The translations under genes and the position numbers were made by a program. 64,000 bases of DNA from Gammaproteobacteria bacterium (GTDB lineage: Bacteria > Pseudomonadota > Gammaproteobacteria > CBDBNL01 > G965229495), in the NCBI GenBank assembly GCA_965229495.1, contig OZ245880.1:518603-582602 (forward strand). The letters are read 5' to 3'. How positions within the stretch are numbered: the stretch's first letter is position 1; each line of letters opens with the position of its first letter. Below the pieces are notes generated by a model. It was not told the origin of the DNA. It did no database searches and worked only from the letters and a program-made list of their open reading frames with translations. Below, one piece after another: positions 57,497-64,000 of the stretch.

Positions 57497-58717
57497 TCAA
57501 ACCAACCAACGCGCTAGCTCTTGCATCACGTAGTTGAGCGGCAGGCGTTCTTGCTCGAGTCTGCTGCCGTGGTAGTGGCCGGAGCGCAGGCGGTTGAATA
57601 AGGCTATTTCTTGTTCGGTCAAGGCTATGGGAGCTTGGGCGACGGAATCGGGTTCGGCGACCATGCGCTCGGCGAAGGCTTCGACTGTGGCTTCGTCCAT
57701 CATCAGCGCGGTAATGCTGCTGAGTTTGGCTCTAGCGTCGCTGAGTATGCGCAGGCCCTCGGAGTCGATATCGCCCCAGTAGCCGACGTTCTTAGCGCTC
57801 AACCATTCAGCCTGCAGCCAAGCGACATTACTACCGCCACCAGCGACCGCTACCGTGTCGCGAATAGTGCCCAGCGCCAGGCAGGATTGCTCGTTCTCGA
57901 TTACCAGGATGTTGCTCGCGGGCAACTCGAACTCTTGCAGAGTATCGGCAGACAAGCGCAACAGCGGCACGCCACCGAGCAAGCCTTTAGTTTGCGCGCA
58001 CAGCGGCTTGACCAGCAGCCAGTGTTTCGGCTTCTCACGGCAATCCAACCAATTGAGCAAGCCGACTTGCTTAGCTGCCTGATCGATAAGCGCCGCGACT
58101 ATGGCTTCGATTATGCGCCGATTAGCCTCGATAAACTTGGTGTCGACGTCGGTTACTGGTAGCGCCCTCAAGTAGCAGCCCTGCCCCAGCGCTGGCTTGA
58201 GTTGTGGTATTAGTTTTATTAATAGTTTGAGCTCGCTCGCTTTGAAATCCTCGACGATTTCAAGATGGGCGATGAGCGCTTGAAACAATTCGCGCTCGCA
58301 GTCAACTCTTGCCTCGGTGCCGATTGCCTCTAAGAGCGCGTCAATAAGGTGCTTGATCCGGCCCTGCCACTGGCGCAATTGGCGCTCGGCGTCAGCGCCG
58401 AGCAAGCTCGCCAGCGTGGCGATATCGGGGATGACCAGAGAAGCTGGCACTTCCTGATAGCCCAGCGCGCGATAGCTGTGGCGTTGCCACTGCACCAAGT
58501 CCGGTCGCGCGAAGCCGCGCCAGGACGCGATAAGCTCTTGAAAGCGACCAATATCTGCCAACGCCGCGTTACCCTTGGGTGGCTTTAAGGCGATCGCCAA
58601 GGGAAAGCCAGCATCGCTGCCGAGCAGGATTTTGAGCTTAGTGTAGTTCTGCCAATGCTCAGCTCTTAGGCGAGCGATAACATCCTCAGGTAGTAGGCCC
58701 CATTTCGATCTAGACAC
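57497..58717 (-). CDS. jetD: Wadjet JetD (DUF3322 / DUF2220 toprim-like nuclease subunit)
   Basis: 406 aa. The C-terminal toprim-like motifs ILVIENEQSCLAL (Glu) and YWGDIDSEGLRI (DxD) are characteristic of JetD/MksG. It sits immediately downstream of, and overlaps, the SMC-like gene. Confidence 0.7.
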   Translation of the reverse strand: MSRSKWGLLPEDVIARLRAEHWQNYTKLKILLGSDAGFPLAIALKPPKGNAALADIGRFQELIASWRGFARPDLVQWQRHSYRALGYQEVPASLVIPDIATLASLLGADAERQLRQWQGRIKHLIDALLEAIGTEARVDCERELFQALIAHLEIVEDFKASELKLLIKLIPQLKPALGQGCYLRALPVTDVDTKFIEANRRIIEAIVAALIDQAAKQVGLLNWLDCREKPKHWLLVKPLCAQTKGLLGGVPLLRLSADTLQEFELPASNILVIENEQSCLALGTIRDTVAVAGGGSNVAWLQAEWLSAKNVGYWGDIDSEGLRILSDARAKLSSITALMMDEATVEAFAERMVAEPDSVAQAPIALTEQEIALFNRLRSGHYHGSRLEQERLPLNYVMQELARWLV

Positions 58718-61700
58718 TATTGAGCTCGACGCCGCTGGCTTGCAATTCGGTAACTATGGCCGCTTGCCTGTGCTCGGCCATGCGTCGATCAATTTCCTCC
58801 CAAGTAACTTCGCACAGATGGCTTTCGTGCAATTCGGCGTCGCGCTCGGCGATCAGCAAAGACCGCGCCGATTCGCGTGCCAGATTGAGGTTTTTGTACG
58901 GCGTGATTAAGTTGACGTGGATATGCAGCTCCTTGAACACCCGCAGCACTCTGCGGCTGACGGCTTCGGCGGTATTGGAAAAGGCTTCGTCCAAAAACAC
59001 CGTGCAATACAGCGGGCGGTCGCAACCATCCGGCGTCAGCACGTAGGCGAGGCTCGCGGCGACTATAGTGCCAGCGAAGGATTCTTTCTCGCCGCCGGAT
59101 TTGCCGCTGCTCGATTCGAGCACGTCGCGGACATTGAGATTTTGCGTGTCAATTTCCTCCGCATAGAACGACATTTGATACCTGGGGTCGAGCAGGCGCA
59201 AGCTCTCCAAGGTGCTGGAAGTAACCGAGGCGCTGGCCTTCTCCAGAATCTCGACCACCTCCGCCAAAAGCTGAAAACGCGCTTCGTGATCGTCGCTGGT
59301 CGCCTGGCTCAAAGCGCTGCGTACTTTGCGCTCGAAGTCCTGGACGTGCGGGTATTTTTCCCGCTTTGAGCCCAGCTTCAAATGACTACCCTGCTTGAAC
59401 TCGGTGCGCTGCAGCACGCTATTGATAGTATCGATGCGCTCTAAGATATCTTCTCGCTCTGATTCGAGCTTAGTTTTAATTCGCGCTAGCGATTGAGTGG
59501 CGTGCTTATTGAGGCGCTCTTTGAACTGACCAATCAGCTCGGGCAAACCTTCTTTTTCAATGTAAGAGTAATGATCCAAATAATATTGCAGGCCGTCTAA
59601 ACCAGTAGCCCAATCGACAGTGAGGGGCTGCCATTTATCGCGACCGCGAAAAGAGCTCATAGTGCCATTAGCGGCGTTCTCGGCGGCACTCTTCGCCAAA
59701 CGCTCTTTTTCTAACTCGCTATCTAAAGCACGAGCTAGTTCGGCTTGGCGCCCAGAATTGGCAATAGTTACTACGCCCACTCTCGCCGCCAATAGCTGTC
59801 TTACTTCGTCATTCATTCCCACCGCCGCCAGTTGGCGATACTTCTCGGACTGCTGCTCGGCGTGTTGTTTAGTGTTGCTCAAAGAGCCCTTTTGCGTCAG
59901 GAGTTGGCCTTTGTTGGTTTGTATCTGTTGTAGTTGCTCTTTGGCAGCATCCCATCTGCTCTTGGCTAGCTCCAGGCTGCCACCAGCTTGCTGCAGAGCC
60001 GCCAGATCGGCTTGCACGCTATCCAAACGACTTTGCCAATAGGGTGCGTTGACCTGCTGCCAGGAGTAGGCAGCGACGCGCTGCCAAAGGTTGGCGCTGG
60101 CATTAACTTTATCGAGCGCCGCCCTAGCCTTGACCGAGCTGGCTTCGAGTTCCGCCAACAGACGCTCGGCTGCTTGCCGGTCGTTGTTCAAAAGTGCCAA
60201 GCGCGATTTATTGGAAAAGCCCAAGCTCCAACTGCGCCGATCGTCGATCTTGCGCTGGTCTTTCTTTTCAAAGCGGCCTTGCTGCATATGCATCAGGCCT
60301 TCTTGAGTCATCGAGAACGGCGTGGCGTCGAGCTCGTCGGTACCAGACACGCAGCGCAGATCAAACTTATGCAAATGGCTTTTGAGCCAATCGCGGTACT
60401 GGTGCTCTTTCCACACCAGCTTGCGCAGAAAGCCGCGCTCGTTAAATTCAACGAAGCCTTTATGCTCGGCAATATTCTGCCCAACAACCTGGGCGCGCAC
60501 GTGCAGCCCAGTATGGCGCACGTTGAGCCAGCGCGTTACCATCGAGTAGCTCTTGTGCGGCACCAAAAGCGTAGTGCGGAGCCCGCCGAGCGCGCGTTCG
60601 ATGGCGCCTTGCCAGGACTTTTCACTGTCTTTAACATCAAGCAACTCACCGATAAATACCAACTCGTCGTCGCCTAGATCAAGCGACTCGCTCATGGCAT
60701 CGCGGAGCTGCTGATAATTGACGGCGATATTGGAATCGGGGCGCGCCTCGATCTCGCGAATCTCGTCGTTAATAGCGCTCAAGGCTTGCTGCTGTTGGCT
60801 GAATTGCGCGGCGGCTTCGCCAAAATTGTCTTGGACGCGCTTGGTGTCGTCGGCTATTTTCTCCAGCCTTTCAGTAGCAGCGCGCTTATTGGCAATGAAT
60901 AGCTCTTCATTAAGCTCAGCGTCTAACTCTAATTCGCGGCAGTCTTTTTGATAACTTGAAGACGCTTGGATGACTGAGCTGAGTTTGTCTTGGGCGTGTT
61001 GGATGTCTTTTTGTAAAGACTCGATTTTATCGCCGCCCAGGTTGAGATATTCCTCGTGACGCTTTTCTACTGCGGCTTGCGCGTCTTGCTCCTCTATCTC
61101 AACCTTACTAATAGACCGTGCTAAGGCTTCTAACTCGGATTCTAACTCGCTCAACTTCGCCAACCATAGTGCCGCGAGAGCTTCGGCGAAATAAACGCTG
61201 AGGTGGTCTTTCTCTAGCTGCAATTGCTCCAGCGCCTGCTTGGCTGCCGAGATGGTCTCGGCGAGTTCGGGCAAGCGGCGCAAATGCTCAAACTGCTCTC
61301 GAGCATCTATTAGCTGCTCGTGGATTGCCACCAGGTCGGCAAACTCTTCGACTACTTTACGCGCGTCTTCTTTTACTCCGCTGGGCTCCAGCACTAACTC
61401 GCGGATGAGCTTGGTAAGGTCGTCGATCTTCTTGAGGCCGAGCGCGCGCGATAACAGAGCCGGGGCGTTCTTATTATCCATGCACAAGTGCTTGCGGTAT
61501 AGCTCTTGATAATCGGTGAAATTGCTATCGCAATCGGTGACGGCTGGGTCATCGCGTAGCCATTGTTTCAATTGCCGCGTATTGCCTTCGGCAAAGGCAT
61601 CGAGTAATTCCTTGAGCTGCATGTTGCGCTCGGCGACCACGTAAACTCGCTTGACGTCGCTCAGGGCATTAGTAGCGCTGGTAATCCAAAACAACGCTGC

Positions 61701-62108
61701 CAGAACAATGCTCGAACCATCGTCGCACTGGTATAGCGCCAGCAATCCAGTAACCACGGCTTTCTCGCGTTTGCTCTTGACGCGCGTGGCCGAACCATCG
61801 TGCGCCGAGCCAAAGCTACCGCGCATGTACGACAACAGCGACCTGTCAGAACGATCGCCTTGAGCTGCGGCGACGTTAAAGGTGGCTTTGCCAGCGGGCA
61901 GCAGCAGCGCCATCAAGCCATCGATAAAAGTCGATTTACCCGAACCGTTATCGCCGGTTACCAGGGTGCCGTCAGGGTCTATAGCCGCAGTGTGCAAGCC
62001 GTGGAAAGAGCCCCAGTTGTAAACCGAAAGCTTAGCCAGCCTTATCTGCCCTTGGTGCCCTGGGGGAAATAAGCTCATTGGCTGCGGGGCACTGACTCTA
62101 TTAGTCAT
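58710..62108 (-). CDS. jetC: Wadjet JetC (MukB/SMC-like ATPase)
   Basis: 1132 aa with the N-terminal motif LSVYNWGSF plus Walker A GDNGSGKST, about 800 aa of coiled-coil, and a C-terminal Walker B/D-loop CTVFLDEAFS. The true start may be the Met 10 codons in (62078). Confidence 0.8.
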   Translation of the reverse strand: MTNRVSAPQPMSLFPPGHQGQIRLAKLSVYNWGSFHGLHTAAIDPDGTLVTGDNGSGKSTFIDGLMALLLPAGKATFNVAAAQGDRSDRSLLSYMRGSFGSAHDGSATRVKSKREKAVVTGLLALYQCDDGSSIVLAALFWITSATNALSDVKRVYVVAERNMQLKELLDAFAEGNTRQLKQWLRDDPAVTDCDSNFTDYQELYRKHLCMDNKNAPALLSRALGLKKIDDLTKLIRELVLEPSGVKEDARKVVEEFADLVAIHEQLIDAREQFEHLRRLPELAETISAAKQALEQLQLEKDHLSVYFAEALAALWLAKLSELESELEALARSISKVEIEEQDAQAAVEKRHEEYLNLGGDKIESLQKDIQHAQDKLSSVIQASSSYQKDCRELELDAELNEELFIANKRAATERLEKIADDTKRVQDNFGEAAAQFSQQQQALSAINDEIREIEARPDSNIAVNYQQLRDAMSESLDLGDDELVFIGELLDVKDSEKSWQGAIERALGGLRTTLLVPHKSYSMVTRWLNVRHTGLHVRAQVVGQNIAEHKGFVEFNERGFLRKLVWKEHQYRDWLKSHLHKFDLRCVSGTDELDATPFSMTQEGLMHMQQGRFEKKDQRKIDDRRSWSLGFSNKSRLALLNNDRQAAERLLAELEASSVKARAALDKVNASANLWQRVAAYSWQQVNAPYWQSRLDSVQADLAALQQAGGSLELAKSRWDAAKEQLQQIQTNKGQLLTQKGSLSNTKQHAEQQSEKYRQLAAVGMNDEVRQLLAARVGVVTIANSGRQAELARALDSELEKERLAKSAAENAANGTMSSFRGRDKWQPLTVDWATGLDGLQYYLDHYSYIEKEGLPELIGQFKERLNKHATQSLARIKTKLESEREDILERIDTINSVLQRTEFKQGSHLKLGSKREKYPHVQDFERKVRSALSQATSDDHEARFQLLAEVVEILEKASASVTSSTLESLRLLDPRYQMSFYAEEIDTQNLNVRDVLESSSGKSGGEKESFAGTIVAASLAYVLTPDGCDRPLYCTVFLDEAFSNTAEAVSRRVLRVFKELHIHVNLITPYKNLNLARESARSLLIAERDAELHESHLCEVTWEEIDRRMAEHRQAAIVTELQASGVELNSV

Positions 62109-62144
62109 TGACTGATCAATTCTGGATAACCTAACGTTATGAGT

Positions 62145-62196
62145 GCAAACTCGGCAAATTCTCGCACACCGGATTTACCATGCGCCGCTAGAAAGG
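62145..62196. repeat. 52-bp repeat, copy 2 (core ACCGGATTTACCATGCGC)
   Basis: See copy 1 at 44401-44452. It lies in the 185-bp gap between the Rpn-like gene and jetC. Confidence 0.6.
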
Positions 62197-62293
62197 TCGT
62201 CTACGGCACTATCTACGTGGTGGGCAAGGTGCTGCGCTGCAGGGCGACGGTGAAGTCTGTGTTAATTTGTGCTTTGTTACAAACTGAGGTAGC

Positions 62294-63097
62294 TCAGCCC
62301 AGCATTCGCCGAACCTGAGACTCAGTTAGCTCTAAATCATGGGCAATTTCTGCCAAAGAGATACCGCGCTGGGCTAAGGCGGTTACGGCTTTTTGTAGCC
62401 CCTTCTGCTCACCTCGCTCCATGCCTCGCTCCATGCCTCGTTCCATGGCGAGTTGGTAAATGCCGAGTTTTTCTACTTCTATGAACATTGCGGAAGTCTC
62501 CTTAACCAAATGTTGTAAGTCGCGATTGGTCGCCAAAATATCGAGCATAACCAAGCTGTCACGCAGACTGTCAAATTGGTCTCCGTGTAAACGCCTTAAT
62601 TTGCTCGTTATCTCAGCAACTAGAGCGCGGGGATCGCGACCTTTGAAGTCGCAAAGTATAGCCAATACCAGGGCGTCCGGGTTGGCTGAATTCAGAAAGT
62701 CTTTGCTGTCGTGTTTGCTTAGATCTAAAATCTGGTAGCAATAGTGCCAGTCAGGATTTTGTATGTGGTCGGGTATGGTCAGATCGGCTTTGCCCATATA
62801 TAGCAGGTATTGCTTGATGTCTTCGCCAGGGTAGGTGAGCGCCAAGTCGGTGTAATAGCGCAACATGCGGATAGGGAAATGAGCCTGGTTGTCGTTTTGT
62901 ATCTCTACGTGCAGGAGGTAACTTTTACCTTCGATGTCTTTAACGCGGGCAACCAGATCGGCGCGCTTACCTTCAATGCGAGGTTGCTCGGTGTCGAGGG
63001 GTTCGGCATCGACGATATTGAGTTCAAATAGCTGGGTGCTAAACTCAACCAGGAGGCGCTTGAGTATCTTTTTAGAGATGAGGTCTTTGTTGGGCAT
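62294..63097 (-). CDS. Rpn-family (YhgA-like) PD-(D/E)XK recombination-promoting nuclease / putative transposase
   Basis: 267 aa with the N-terminal nuclease core (...GKRADLVARV...YLLHVEIQND...) and the family's characteristic C-terminal short tandem repeats (MERGMERGMERGEQKG). Confidence 0.65.
   Translation of the reverse strand: MPNKDLISKKILKRLLVEFSTQLFELNIVDAEPLDTEQPRIEGKRADLVARVKDIEGKSYLLHVEIQNDNQAHFPIRMLRYYTDLALTYPGEDIKQYLLYMGKADLTIPDHIQNPDWHYCYQILDLSKHDSKDFLNSANPDALVLAILCDFKGRDPRALVAEITSKLRRLHGDQFDSLRDSLVMLDILATNRDLQHLVKETSAMFIEVEKLGIYQLAMERGMERGMERGEQKGLQKAVTALAQRGISLAEIAHDLELTESQVRRMLG
62394..62438. repeat. 12-bp x3 tandem coding repeat (CCTCGCTCCATG) inside the Rpn-like gene
   Basis: Seen directly; encodes (MERG)x3 on the minus strand. 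Confidence 0.5.
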
Positions 63098-63115
63098 TGA
63101 AGCTTGGGGGCATGG

Positions 63116-63925
63116 TTAATCGGTCTCGTCATCGTTATTCAAGAGCGGCGGCGCTAAGCCAGCGTTCTCAGCCAATTGCAGATACTCAGCCAGCATGGAT
63201 TCCAAAAAGCTGGCGCTGACCACGTAGCGAATGATCGGGGTAATTTCGTATCTATCTTCGGTGCCGCGAATGCTCGATAGCACTTTGCGGCGCACCATTT
63301 CTTTCACCCTCGCCAAGAGCTTGCGCCGATCTTTGGAGGCGTAATCGGTAATCGGCAGAAATGGCGCCAGGTACGATTCGAGGCGCTCGACGTCTATGGT
63401 GATCTTTTGCTCGCCAGCGGATTCTCGATCCTGGTAGTGTTTGCGGAGCACCAGCAAGATCAGAGTATCGTAGAGCGACAGCGCCCTTCGGGTAATCAAG
63501 GTGGTCGATTCTTCGGCTTGCTCCTCGGCATCCGGCTCGGCTTCAGCATCGTCGTGCTCGTTCTGATACGCCGAGCTGGCGACAAAGGCCACGCCGCTTT
63601 TTTGATCGAGCACTAGCTGCAGATAGACCGCCGCCAAGTGCTTGCGGATAGCGAGCTCGTGGCGACACAGCGACTCGAACAGCTTGGCCTTTTGCGCTGC
63701 CAGCACCGAGCCTTGGCGCAGCAAATACACTAGCGCGCGCCGAGCATCATGCGGCATAGCCGAATCGCTGGGGTTTACGCCCTCGCCTGCTGCGATCCCT
63801 TCAACCTCTGCTACACCACCGACCTCTGCCTCTGCCAGCTCGGCAAAGTCATTAAGCGCTTTGCCCGCCACCTCATCGCCAGCGCTGGCTTTGCCAGTAA
63901 CCAGGGTAAAGAAACTATCAGCCAT
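63116..63925 (-). CDS. jetB: Wadjet JetB (MukE-like kleisin-associated subunit, DUF4194-like)
   Basis: 269-aa acidic protein. Its start ATG overlaps the stop of the upstream ORF (TAATG) and it lies upstream of jetC, consistent with the jetA-jetB-jetC-jetD order. Confidence 0.55.
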   Translation of the reverse strand: MADSFFTLVTGKASAGDEVAGKALNDFAELAEAEVGGVAEVEGIAAGEGVNPSDSAMPHDARRALVYLLRQGSVLAAQKAKLFESLCRHELAIRKHLAAVYLQLVLDQKSGVAFVASSAYQNEHDDAEAEPDAEEQAEESTTLITRRALSLYDTLILLVLRKHYQDRESAGEQKITIDVERLESYLAPFLPITDYASKDRRKLLARVKEMVRRKVLSSIRGTEDRYEITPIIRYVVSASFLESMLAEYLQLAENAGLAPPLLNNDDETD

Positions 63926-64000
63926 TACAGCGACAACTCATCGATATTCTCTGGAAACAAATCCAGCGATAGCAGATAAGTCGGTATCGACGCCCGCAGG
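63922..64000 (-). CDS. jetA: C-terminal end of the upstream gene, presumably Wadjet JetA (MukF-like); rest lies beyond the window
   Basis: Only the last 26 codons (...LRASIPTYLLSLDLFPENIDELSL*) are visible. The call rests on operon position and stop/start overlap with jetB. Confidence 0.3.

Follow-up and report, generated by a model that had tools for sequence, protein, structure and literature searches.

The 64,000-nt window analysed here, a stretch of contig OZ245880.1 from an uncultured gammaproteobacterium, carries at its right edge a predicted Wadjet (Jet) defence operon in which a small gene of the Rpn nuclease family is lodged between jetB and jetC. All genes of this locus lie on the minus strand and follow the canonical order jetA-jetB-jetC-jetD. 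The 3' end of jetA (kleisin, DUF3375; 63925..64000, minus strand) is cut by the window edge and is followed on the same strand by jetB (63116..63925; 269 aa, DUF4194/MukE-like), jetC (58710..62108; 1132 aa, SMC/MukB-like ATPase) and jetD (57497..58717; 406 aa, Toprim nuclease subunit). An earlier, sequence-only reading of the region had named the last three genes JetB, JetC and JetD, and the profile searches bear this out. All open reading frames (ORFs) were recovered at these positions and match type I profiles of PADLOC and families of Pfam very strongly: JetB1 at 1.7e-100 and DUF4194 at 4.6e-34 (118 bits against a cut-off of 32.7) for JetB, JetC1 at E=0 (1515 bits, spanning JetC residues 18-1116) for JetC, and JetD1 at 7.4e-160 together with DUF3322 and JetD_C (DUF2220) at 131 and 145 bits for JetD. 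Neither JetC nor JetD thus failed to match its profile, and in JetC the Pfam families AAA_29 and SbcC_Walker_B also exceed their cut-offs, with the long coiled coil and the Walker A (GDNGSGKST) and Walker B (FLDEAF) motifs in place. The truncated gene upstream, joined to jetB by a stop/start overlap, had been proposed to be jetA and proved to be so: the final 24 jetA codons in the window (frame from 63999) read LRASIPTYLLSLDLFPENIDELSL followed by a stop codon, and are identical to the C-terminus of 486-aa DUF3375 proteins encoded at the same position in the sister loci L001, L003, L004 and L081.

With its four components and their order, intact Walker A/B and Toprim motifs, and the usual overlaps at the jetA/jetB (1 nt, jetA stop with jetB ATG) and jetC/jetD (8 nt) junctions, the locus appears to be a complete type I Wadjet (JetABCD; MksBEFG, EptABCD) anti-plasmid operon, for which plasmid restriction is predicted. 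However, contiguity, a feature that is typical of Wadjet operons although not strictly defining, is lacking at jetB/jetC, where 18 nt, an unrelated gene of 267 codons and a 185-nt spacer together make a gap of 1,007 bp. In contrast, jetB and jetC are contiguous in 77 of 78 type I Wadjet loci collected from JGI metagenomes (JetB 48-73% identical) and contiguous or overlapping in two sister alleles of the same lineage, in agreement with what the sequence-only reading had assumed of canonical jet operons.

The gene in the gap (62294..63097, minus strand) encodes a 267-aa protein that starts with a PD-(D/E)XK-type nuclease domain, continues with four-residue repeats and ends in a three-helix domain resembling a helix-turn-helix (HTH) fold, and it corresponds in its motifs, predicted fold and gene architecture to the long product (RpnL) of rpn genes. 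It had earlier been read as an Rpn/YhgA-like PD-(D/E)XK gene; the gene, its motifs and its fold agree with that call, but the protein stays below every curated Rpn or PDDEXK threshold. Among Pfam families there was no match at E<0.01 and none to PF04754, PDDEXK_2 (PF12784) reached 14.9 bits (E=0.023) against a cut-off of 27.4, and the NCBIfam model of the Rpn family, TIGR01784, gave 36.5 bits against a cut-off of 52.1, over residues 206-264 only. Exact-sequence look-ups of the window protein and of its paralog P0048 returned no match, and no meaningful match, not even the RpnA-S crystal structure, came out of a profile search of PDB sequences. The family itself is large (673 matches, with many paralogs per contig); PDDEXK_2 is matched at E<=1 by all 37 sampled members (best 1.2e-6), and YhgA-like PF04754 (Transposase_31) is matched weakly by 8 of the 37.

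Residues D5, D47, E65-x-Q67, R77 and N139-P-D141-A (NPDA, 139-142) are invariant in the alignment of 37 homologues. RpnA of E. coli requires D11, D63, E82, Q84 and R94, and D165 in its PDDE motif modulates activity (Kingston et al. 2017, PMC5350276). Counterparts of every one of these mutagenesis-tested residues are present in the window protein, with a D-E spacing of 18 residues versus 19 in RpnA, the same E-x-Q and a Q-R spacing of 10 in both. The AlphaFold model (predicted local distance difference test score, pLDDT, of 78) has an alpha/beta N-terminal domain whose best PDB fold matches are PD-(D/E)XK nucleases, namely NucS/EndoMS, N.BspD6I, SdaI, NgoMIV and EcoT38I, and its last 40 residues resemble small HTH domains; the structural scores are modest in both cases. 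The middle gene is therefore a divergent member of the Rpn family on the grounds of motifs, fold and gene architecture, not of a hidden Markov model (HMM) call, and its product is a predicted PD-(D/E)XK endonuclease. It shares with the YhgA-like RpnL/RpnS family the N-terminal nuclease core (D...E-x-Q) and the small helical C-terminal domain, while it is shorter and too divergent for the PF04754, PF12784 and TIGR01784 thresholds. Within the family two sharply different C-terminal tails occur, a QRGISLAEIAHDLELTESQVRRMLG type and a K-LPPEQVAELSGVPL..V type (alignment A2, columns 290-334; window residues ~235-267), and the tail of the jet-embedded clade is common to a minority of paralogs (P0030, P0042, P0048 and P0054).

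Previously characterized rpn genes contain an internal ribosome-binding site and start codon, disrupted in RpnA by the K240R+E241D+M244L substitutions, from which a small C-terminal protein, RpnS, is made that blocks the toxic full-length nuclease; four-residue repeats that vary widely among strains start 8-20 residues past the internal Met (Zhong et al. 2023, PMC10400941). The window gene exhibits the same layout, with K199, E200 and M204 taking the places of K240, E241 and M244 of RpnA (PMC10400941). A Shine-Dalgarno (SD) sequence, AAGGAG (62498..62503, minus strand), is formed by the K199-E200 codons 9 nt upstream of an in-frame ATG at 62488 (...GTT AAG GAG ACT TCC GCA ATG TTC...), so that the Lys-Glu-encoded internal SD a few codons before an in-frame Met is shared with the Rpn family. 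Translation from M204, which is invariant in the 37-homologue alignment, would yield an RpnS-like protein of 64 aa (62294..62488, minus strand), a putative antitoxin. This signal was examined in 63 non-redundant family members, 30-100% identical and ranging from Gammaproteobacteria to Campylobacterota, taking GGAG, GAGG or AGGA located 5-18 nt upstream of an ATG as an SD-like motif. Such a motif precedes the conserved internal ATG in 59 of the 63 members, as compared with 24 of 506 other in-frame ATGs of the same genes, and the Glu codon at the SD site is GAG rather than GAA in a ratio of 58:7, versus 408:851 elsewhere in these genes. Because the SD motif and the GAG preference persist at divergences where synonymous sites are saturated, the signal is hard to explain except by selection for an internal start.

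The MERG repeats noted earlier at the C-terminal side were recovered by Tandem Repeats Finder as a four-residue (12-nt) array (62412..62447, minus strand; period 12, 3 copies), which starts 14 residues past M204 and hence within the 8-20 residues shared by the hypervariable repeats of the Rpn family. Alleles sharing 81-96% identity have between 1 and ~12 copies of the repeat, and folding of the repeat region gave unremarkable z-scores (-0.1 to -1.8). The middle gene thus has the defining architecture of an RpnL/RpnS module, in which, by analogy with E. coli, the small protein would be translated from its own start and would neutralise a toxic long product. The evidence for the internal start is statistical and family-wide, and it suggests that the 'antitoxin within toxin gene' architecture extends to a divergent Rpn subfamily that is missed by current HMM thresholds and that occurs in sulfur-oxidising and methanotrophic Gammaproteobacteria and in Campylobacterota. 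The sole sigma-70-like match of the region (GTGACA-16-TATTTT, window 62535-62562, minus strand) lies inside the rpn gene, 47 nt upstream of the internal ATG, in a scan that performed at chance level; an rpnS promoter would be expected near 62535-62562 by analogy with E. coli.

Comparison with orthologous loci, obtained as long contigs from the ENA assemblies ERZ25074190 and ERZ25074195 through exact-protein look-ups of close homologues, revealed that the rpn gene is present, absent, broken or triplicated between jetB and jetC. These sister jet operons are 91-93% identical to the window at the nucleotide level and belong to the same uncultured gammaproteobacterial lineage. Loci L081 and L086 have no insert, and their jetB and jetC overlap by 8 nt in ATGACTAA; their junctions show no rpn remnants and agree with the outgroup L083, where the two genes are contiguous, and with canonical Wadjet operons. 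The window, L001, L002 and L003 each carry one intact rpn copy. In L082 and L087 the rpn copy is interrupted after codon 20 by a 146-bp element, and L004 has three tandem copies, the third of which is frameshifted. Further truncated rpn clusters were found (P0010, P0017, P0058), and in every disrupted copy the N-terminal catalytic residues are lost while the RpnS part is perfect, which is the expected decay pattern of a toxin-antitoxin gene. The left junction is identical in all occupied loci (GAT|TAACCA..CCCCCAAGCTTCAATG), and this single shared junction argues for one insertion event. The repeat units of L004 each begin with ~50 bp of the jetB 3' end, so the array arose by tandem duplication and not by transposition, in line with published rpn arrays, which arise by tandem duplication, lack terminal inverted repeats (TIRs) and target-site duplications (TSDs), and have variable ends (PMC10400941). 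Between occupied and empty alleles, too, the rpn gene was gained or lost as a single gene with no TSD or TIR. The outgroup together with 77 of the 78 JGI relatives already fixes the ancestral state as a contiguous jetB/jetC pair.

Relative to the empty allele L081, the inserted segment measures ~1.0 kb (62109..63119, minus strand); homology to L081 stops at window position 63123 and restarts at 62089. Together with the rpn gene and the spacer, the insert brings in the jetB stop codon (TAA), and ~7 bp (ACAGCTA) of the overlapping junction of the ancestral state have been lost in exchange. The G+C content of the rpn region is 48-49%, as opposed to ~56% in both flanks. Promoter and terminator scans of 61900-64000 gave matches at chance level only, and an Rfam scan of 57000-64000 returned none. 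The 185-bp spacer between the rpn stop codon and the jetC ATG (62109..62293, minus strand) differs among sister loci and contains no terminator, promoter, Rfam family or unusual structure, nor any SD-like motif within 20 nt of the jetC ATG. In empty alleles, a GAGG inside the 3' end of jetB lies 13 nt upstream of the jetC ATG, and it is lost in the occupied operon. A transposon origin of the insert was considered and ruled out, as it encodes no transposase domain, its ends bear no TIR and a TSD is absent.

The 52-bp repeat that had been placed in this spacer is real, as is the spacer, but its second copy is found outside, at ~44400-44455, some 18 kb away; no repeat occurs within the spacer or the 7-kb region itself. 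The repeat (62143..62196, minus strand; aligned with window 44400-44455) is a fragment, the 3' half, of an element resembling a miniature inverted-repeat transposable element (MITE). A full-length copy is located at 44385..44536 (minus strand) in an intergenic region upstream of a 388-aa ORF and downstream of a MarC-family gene. The element is 146-165 bp long, is bordered by imperfect terminal inverted repeats (GGGAGGCTCTGAGTAATTC ... GAATTAATCAGAGTTTCCTT) and has a central module of two alternative types. Apart from the half copy at 62143-62196 and the copy at 44385-44536, it is found at L082 9887-10032 and L087 9881-10026, within the rpn ORF; window 44436-44536 is 85% identical to the L082 element over 101 nt and has a common 3' end with it. 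Sequences matching its 3' half occur in the rpn-jetC spacer of every single-copy locus, as two variants distinguished by the central module. The idea that the repeat serves as a shared promoter or operator of jetC and the ORF at 43180-44346 was dropped once the full element had been found inside the rpn ORF of L082 and L087.

Pairwise Nei-Gojobori comparisons among the sister loci provide estimates of the ratio of nonsynonymous to synonymous substitution rates (dN/dS). This ratio is 0.04-0.07 for jetC (dS 0.25-0.40), 0.05-0.20 for jetB (dS 0.07-0.38), 0.12-0.20 for jetD (dS 0.16-0.40) and 0.13-0.34 for intact copies of rpn (dS 0.006-0.18), the dS of rpn being about half that of its flanks. Constraint on jetC and jetD is no weaker in occupied than in empty alleles, and therefore the split operon seems to have stayed functional, with the intact rpn copies likewise under apparent constraint. 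Between L001 and L002 there is no difference along ~1.4 kb, a tract that reaches from the final 300 bp of jetB to the start of jetC, while their jetC genes are only 91-94% identical; the insert was therefore either transferred among jet alleles through homologous recombination or subject to a recent sweep. The jet operon is visibly mosaic, and the jet cassette occurs in at least four genomic contexts among closely related contigs, sometimes beside a tyrosine integrase. Two contigs encode JetC proteins of 96.8% identity, whereas their GlyA proteins, assigned to these contigs by length, seem to share only 84%, which suggests recent horizontal transfer of the cassette. A tyrosine integrase is located just past jetD in L081, L082 and L087, and a BrnT toxin pair upstream of jetA in L004, L082, L086 and L087.

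Outside this lineage, the association of Rpn-like genes with Wadjet appears to be rare. An alignment-based scan of GTDB representative genomes yielded relatives of the family with at most 48% identity, and a single-protein scan found none, so that the source lineage is without a close relative in that set. The 74 GTDB loci with family members fall in Sedimenticolaceae, Methylococcales, Thiosymbion, Nitratifractor and Nautiliaceae, and only one of them, L011 from a Sedimenticola sp. metagenome-assembled genome (MAG), has jet genes nearby. There the family member (1388-2278, plus strand; 44% identity) is convergent with jetD (2517-5077, minus strand), 239 bp from the jetD stop codon and outside the operon, and the jet genes of L011 belong to a different Wadjet locus. 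Conversely, none of the 78 JGI type I Wadjet loci carries an Rpn-like gene in the jet locus. The exception to jetB/jetC contiguity among them (L155 884-5869; JGI Ga0190293_1001085) is an unrelated Wadjet locus with a different insert of ~5 kb at this junction; besides an Xre-type HTH gene, this insert encodes, on the opposite strand, a SWIM zinc-finger protein and an SNF2-family helicase (892 aa, DUF3670). A paralog 69% identical to the window protein (P0009) has group II introns, IS200-type transposases and a PIN gene for neighbours, and no jet genes nearby. Apart from the known tendency of rpn genes to cluster with defence genes (PMC10400941), these distributions speak against any general association of Wadjet and Rpn. 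The sequence-only reading had also left room for the Rpn gene being a conserved ancestral member of another operon type; the two empty sister alleles, the 77 contiguous relatives and the close paralogs in unrelated contexts all point the other way.

Taken together, the locus is, in our judgement quite probably, a type I Wadjet operon with a lineage-specific passenger of ~1 kb, of the Rpn type, that was inserted once at the jetB/jetC junction. What was observed directly are the identities of the genes, the polymorphism of the insertion and its single shared junction, the signature of purifying selection, the recombination tract and the conservation of internal start signals. The passenger would have entered the ancestral overlapping junction in a single event, providing jetB with a new stop codon, leaving the jetC ATG intact and removing the translational coupling of the two genes. 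Its full-length, RpnL-like product would be a PD-(D/E)XK DNA endonuclease, and the internal SD and ATG (M204) would direct synthesis of the 64-aa RpnS-like protein, comprising the repeat helix and the three-helix domain, which, like E. coli RpnS, would be expected to bind the nuclease and block it. Downstream, the rpn gene is followed by one half of a MITE-like element. It is likely that rpn is transcribed together with jetABCD, because it has no recognisable promoter of its own, starts 18 nt after jetB in the same orientation and is not followed by a terminator, and jetCD most likely still need read-through. The passenger would spread with the jet cassette, through vertical descent, horizontal cassette transfer and homologous recombination through the jet flanks, and it is probably kept by its own addiction or by an antiphage benefit.

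The passenger does not seem to be needed for Wadjet, as it is absent, degraded or amplified in sister alleles, and it appears to be a non-autonomous hitch-hiker, comparable to published rpn toxin-antitoxin and defence genes (PMC10400941), rather than a transposon. The earlier proposal of a selfish insertion that splits the operon is thus upheld in its main part by the empty, single, disrupted and triple alleles, whereas the word 'selfish' needs qualification in view of the lack of a transposase, TIR or TSD. Like the Rpn family at large, the window family has many copies per genome, no TIR/TSD, arrays formed by tandem duplication and a tendency to adjoin defence genes; it differs in that the window gene sits within the operon of another system, without an evident promoter of its own. 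In defence islands with nested defence or toxin-antitoxin genes, lodging beside or within another system and rapid gain and loss among close relatives are shared with this locus, but the window passenger lies at a normally coupled gene junction inside an operon and not between systems.

Several points weigh against the passenger reading. Toxicity, antitoxin function, nuclease activity and co-transcription would all be carried over by analogy. Purifying selection on the intact rpn copies, their orientation along the operon and their retention in at least six sampled loci would be predicted equally well by a functional link to Wadjet. Composition rather than age may explain part of the low rpn dS. 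Every sister locus was drawn from a small number of ENA assemblies that represent a single environment (ERZ25074190/193/195), and the sequences of the SD test are related, so that Fisher P-values overstate their independence.

It is conceivable, though unlikely, that the Rpn toxin-antitoxin gene is functionally wired to Wadjet, as a backup abortive arm or as an addiction module that stabilises the operon, or else that its nuclease drives a homing-like spread between jet alleles. If it were wired in this way, the toxic long product would come mainly from the jet promoter and the antitoxin from a separate internal start, possibly with an internal promoter, and interference with or a surge in Wadjet expression would shift the toxin:antitoxin ratio. 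The idea of a co-opted accessory nuclease, raised by the sequence-only reading, can be put as a variant Wadjet whose jet promoter also drives the Rpn-like protein as a fifth, functional subunit or effector, for instance a second nuclease or an abortive-infection backup. It could account for the position of rpn 18 nt past jetB in the same orientation without its own promoter or a terminator, for its dN/dS of 0.13-0.34, for intact copies in the window, L001-L003 and L004, and for the distant Rpn-like gene adjoining jetD in the Sedimenticola MAG. It is nevertheless very unlikely, since empty alleles of the same lineage (L081, L086) have intact jetABCD, the nuclease half was lost repeatedly while jetCD stayed intact, one allele is a tandem array of three, none of the 78 related Wadjet loci has rpn, 73 of the 74 other Rpn-like loci are without nearby jet genes, and close paralogs reside in unrelated contexts. 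Homing, whereby the Rpn nuclease would break the DNA of empty jet alleles and repair would copy the occupied one, seems quite improbable as well. The locus does resemble free-standing homing endonuclease genes in its precise intergenic site, its occupied and empty alleles and a flanking tract of high identity; the single shared junction, the low rpn dS and the 1.4-kb tract of L001/L002, which reaches into jetB like a co-conversion tract, would fit, and E. coli Rpn proteins increase RecA-independent recombination (PMC5350276). However, RpnA cleaves with little or no sequence specificity (PMC5350276), the Rpn-like gene shows no sign of site-specific cleavage, other family members are scattered and not site-specific, empty alleles persist in the same sample at high coverage, and ordinary homologous recombination suffices as the jet genes are mosaic elsewhere too.

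That the insertion disabled the operon, with jetCD poorly expressed after the loss of coupling and their conservation reflecting recency only, is likewise quite improbable. The jetB/jetC coupling and the upstream GAGG are gone, the jetC ATG has no SD-like motif within 20 nt, and other lesions occur in the lineage (L002 without jetA, L086 with an insert at the jetA/jetB junction). Still, all seven occupied loci encode full-length JetC and JetD whose Walker A/B and Toprim motifs are intact, the dN/dS of jetC and jetD (0.04-0.07 and 0.12-0.20) is no higher than in comparisons with empty alleles, and rpn alleles have diverged to a dS of 0.13-0.18, which indicates that the insertion is not very recent. 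An assembly or annotation artefact, either a chimeric join or a spurious ORF, can practically be dismissed: although the sister loci are metagenome assemblies, the same architecture recurs in at least seven long contigs that were assembled independently, have different flanks and diverge by 4-12% in sequence, and the rpn ORF is conserved with a dN/dS well below 1.

Both parts of the locus, Wadjet and Rpn, are of known kinds and no new kind of system is involved; the new details are the nesting, the series of alleles and the evidence, gathered across the family, for an internal start. Within one lineage, a single intra-operon site offers a clean natural series of alleles (empty, occupied, nuclease-dead and amplified), and it appears that a tightly coupled SMC-type defence operon tolerates a 1-kb passenger at a coupled junction under strong purifying selection. 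These alleles may also serve as ready-made constructs for assessing the importance of jetB-jetC coupling for Wadjet stoichiometry.

In the same lineage, the jetA/jetB junction appears to be a second insertion hotspot (L086 8150-9000; L002 5533-7157). L086 has ~850 bp of non-coding or remnant DNA at this junction, 74% identical to the sequence upstream of jetB in L002, and in L002 jetA is missing, with an rve-type integrase and a DDE transposase located upstream. On the other side of the operon, a phenylacetate catabolism cluster (PaaA/B/C/D/E-like; window 53759-57367, minus strand) directly follows jetD; it is also found in L001 and L002 and not in the other sister loci. The host belongs to an uncultured gammaproteobacterial group, and no named taxon has a GlyA protein more than 70% identical to its own. 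Group II intron reverse transcriptases (four copies within 12 kb), IS200/IS605 Y1 transposases and giant ORFs (products of 9,146 and 11,150 residues) abound in the host lineage (L079 and L080; L002 1-3609).

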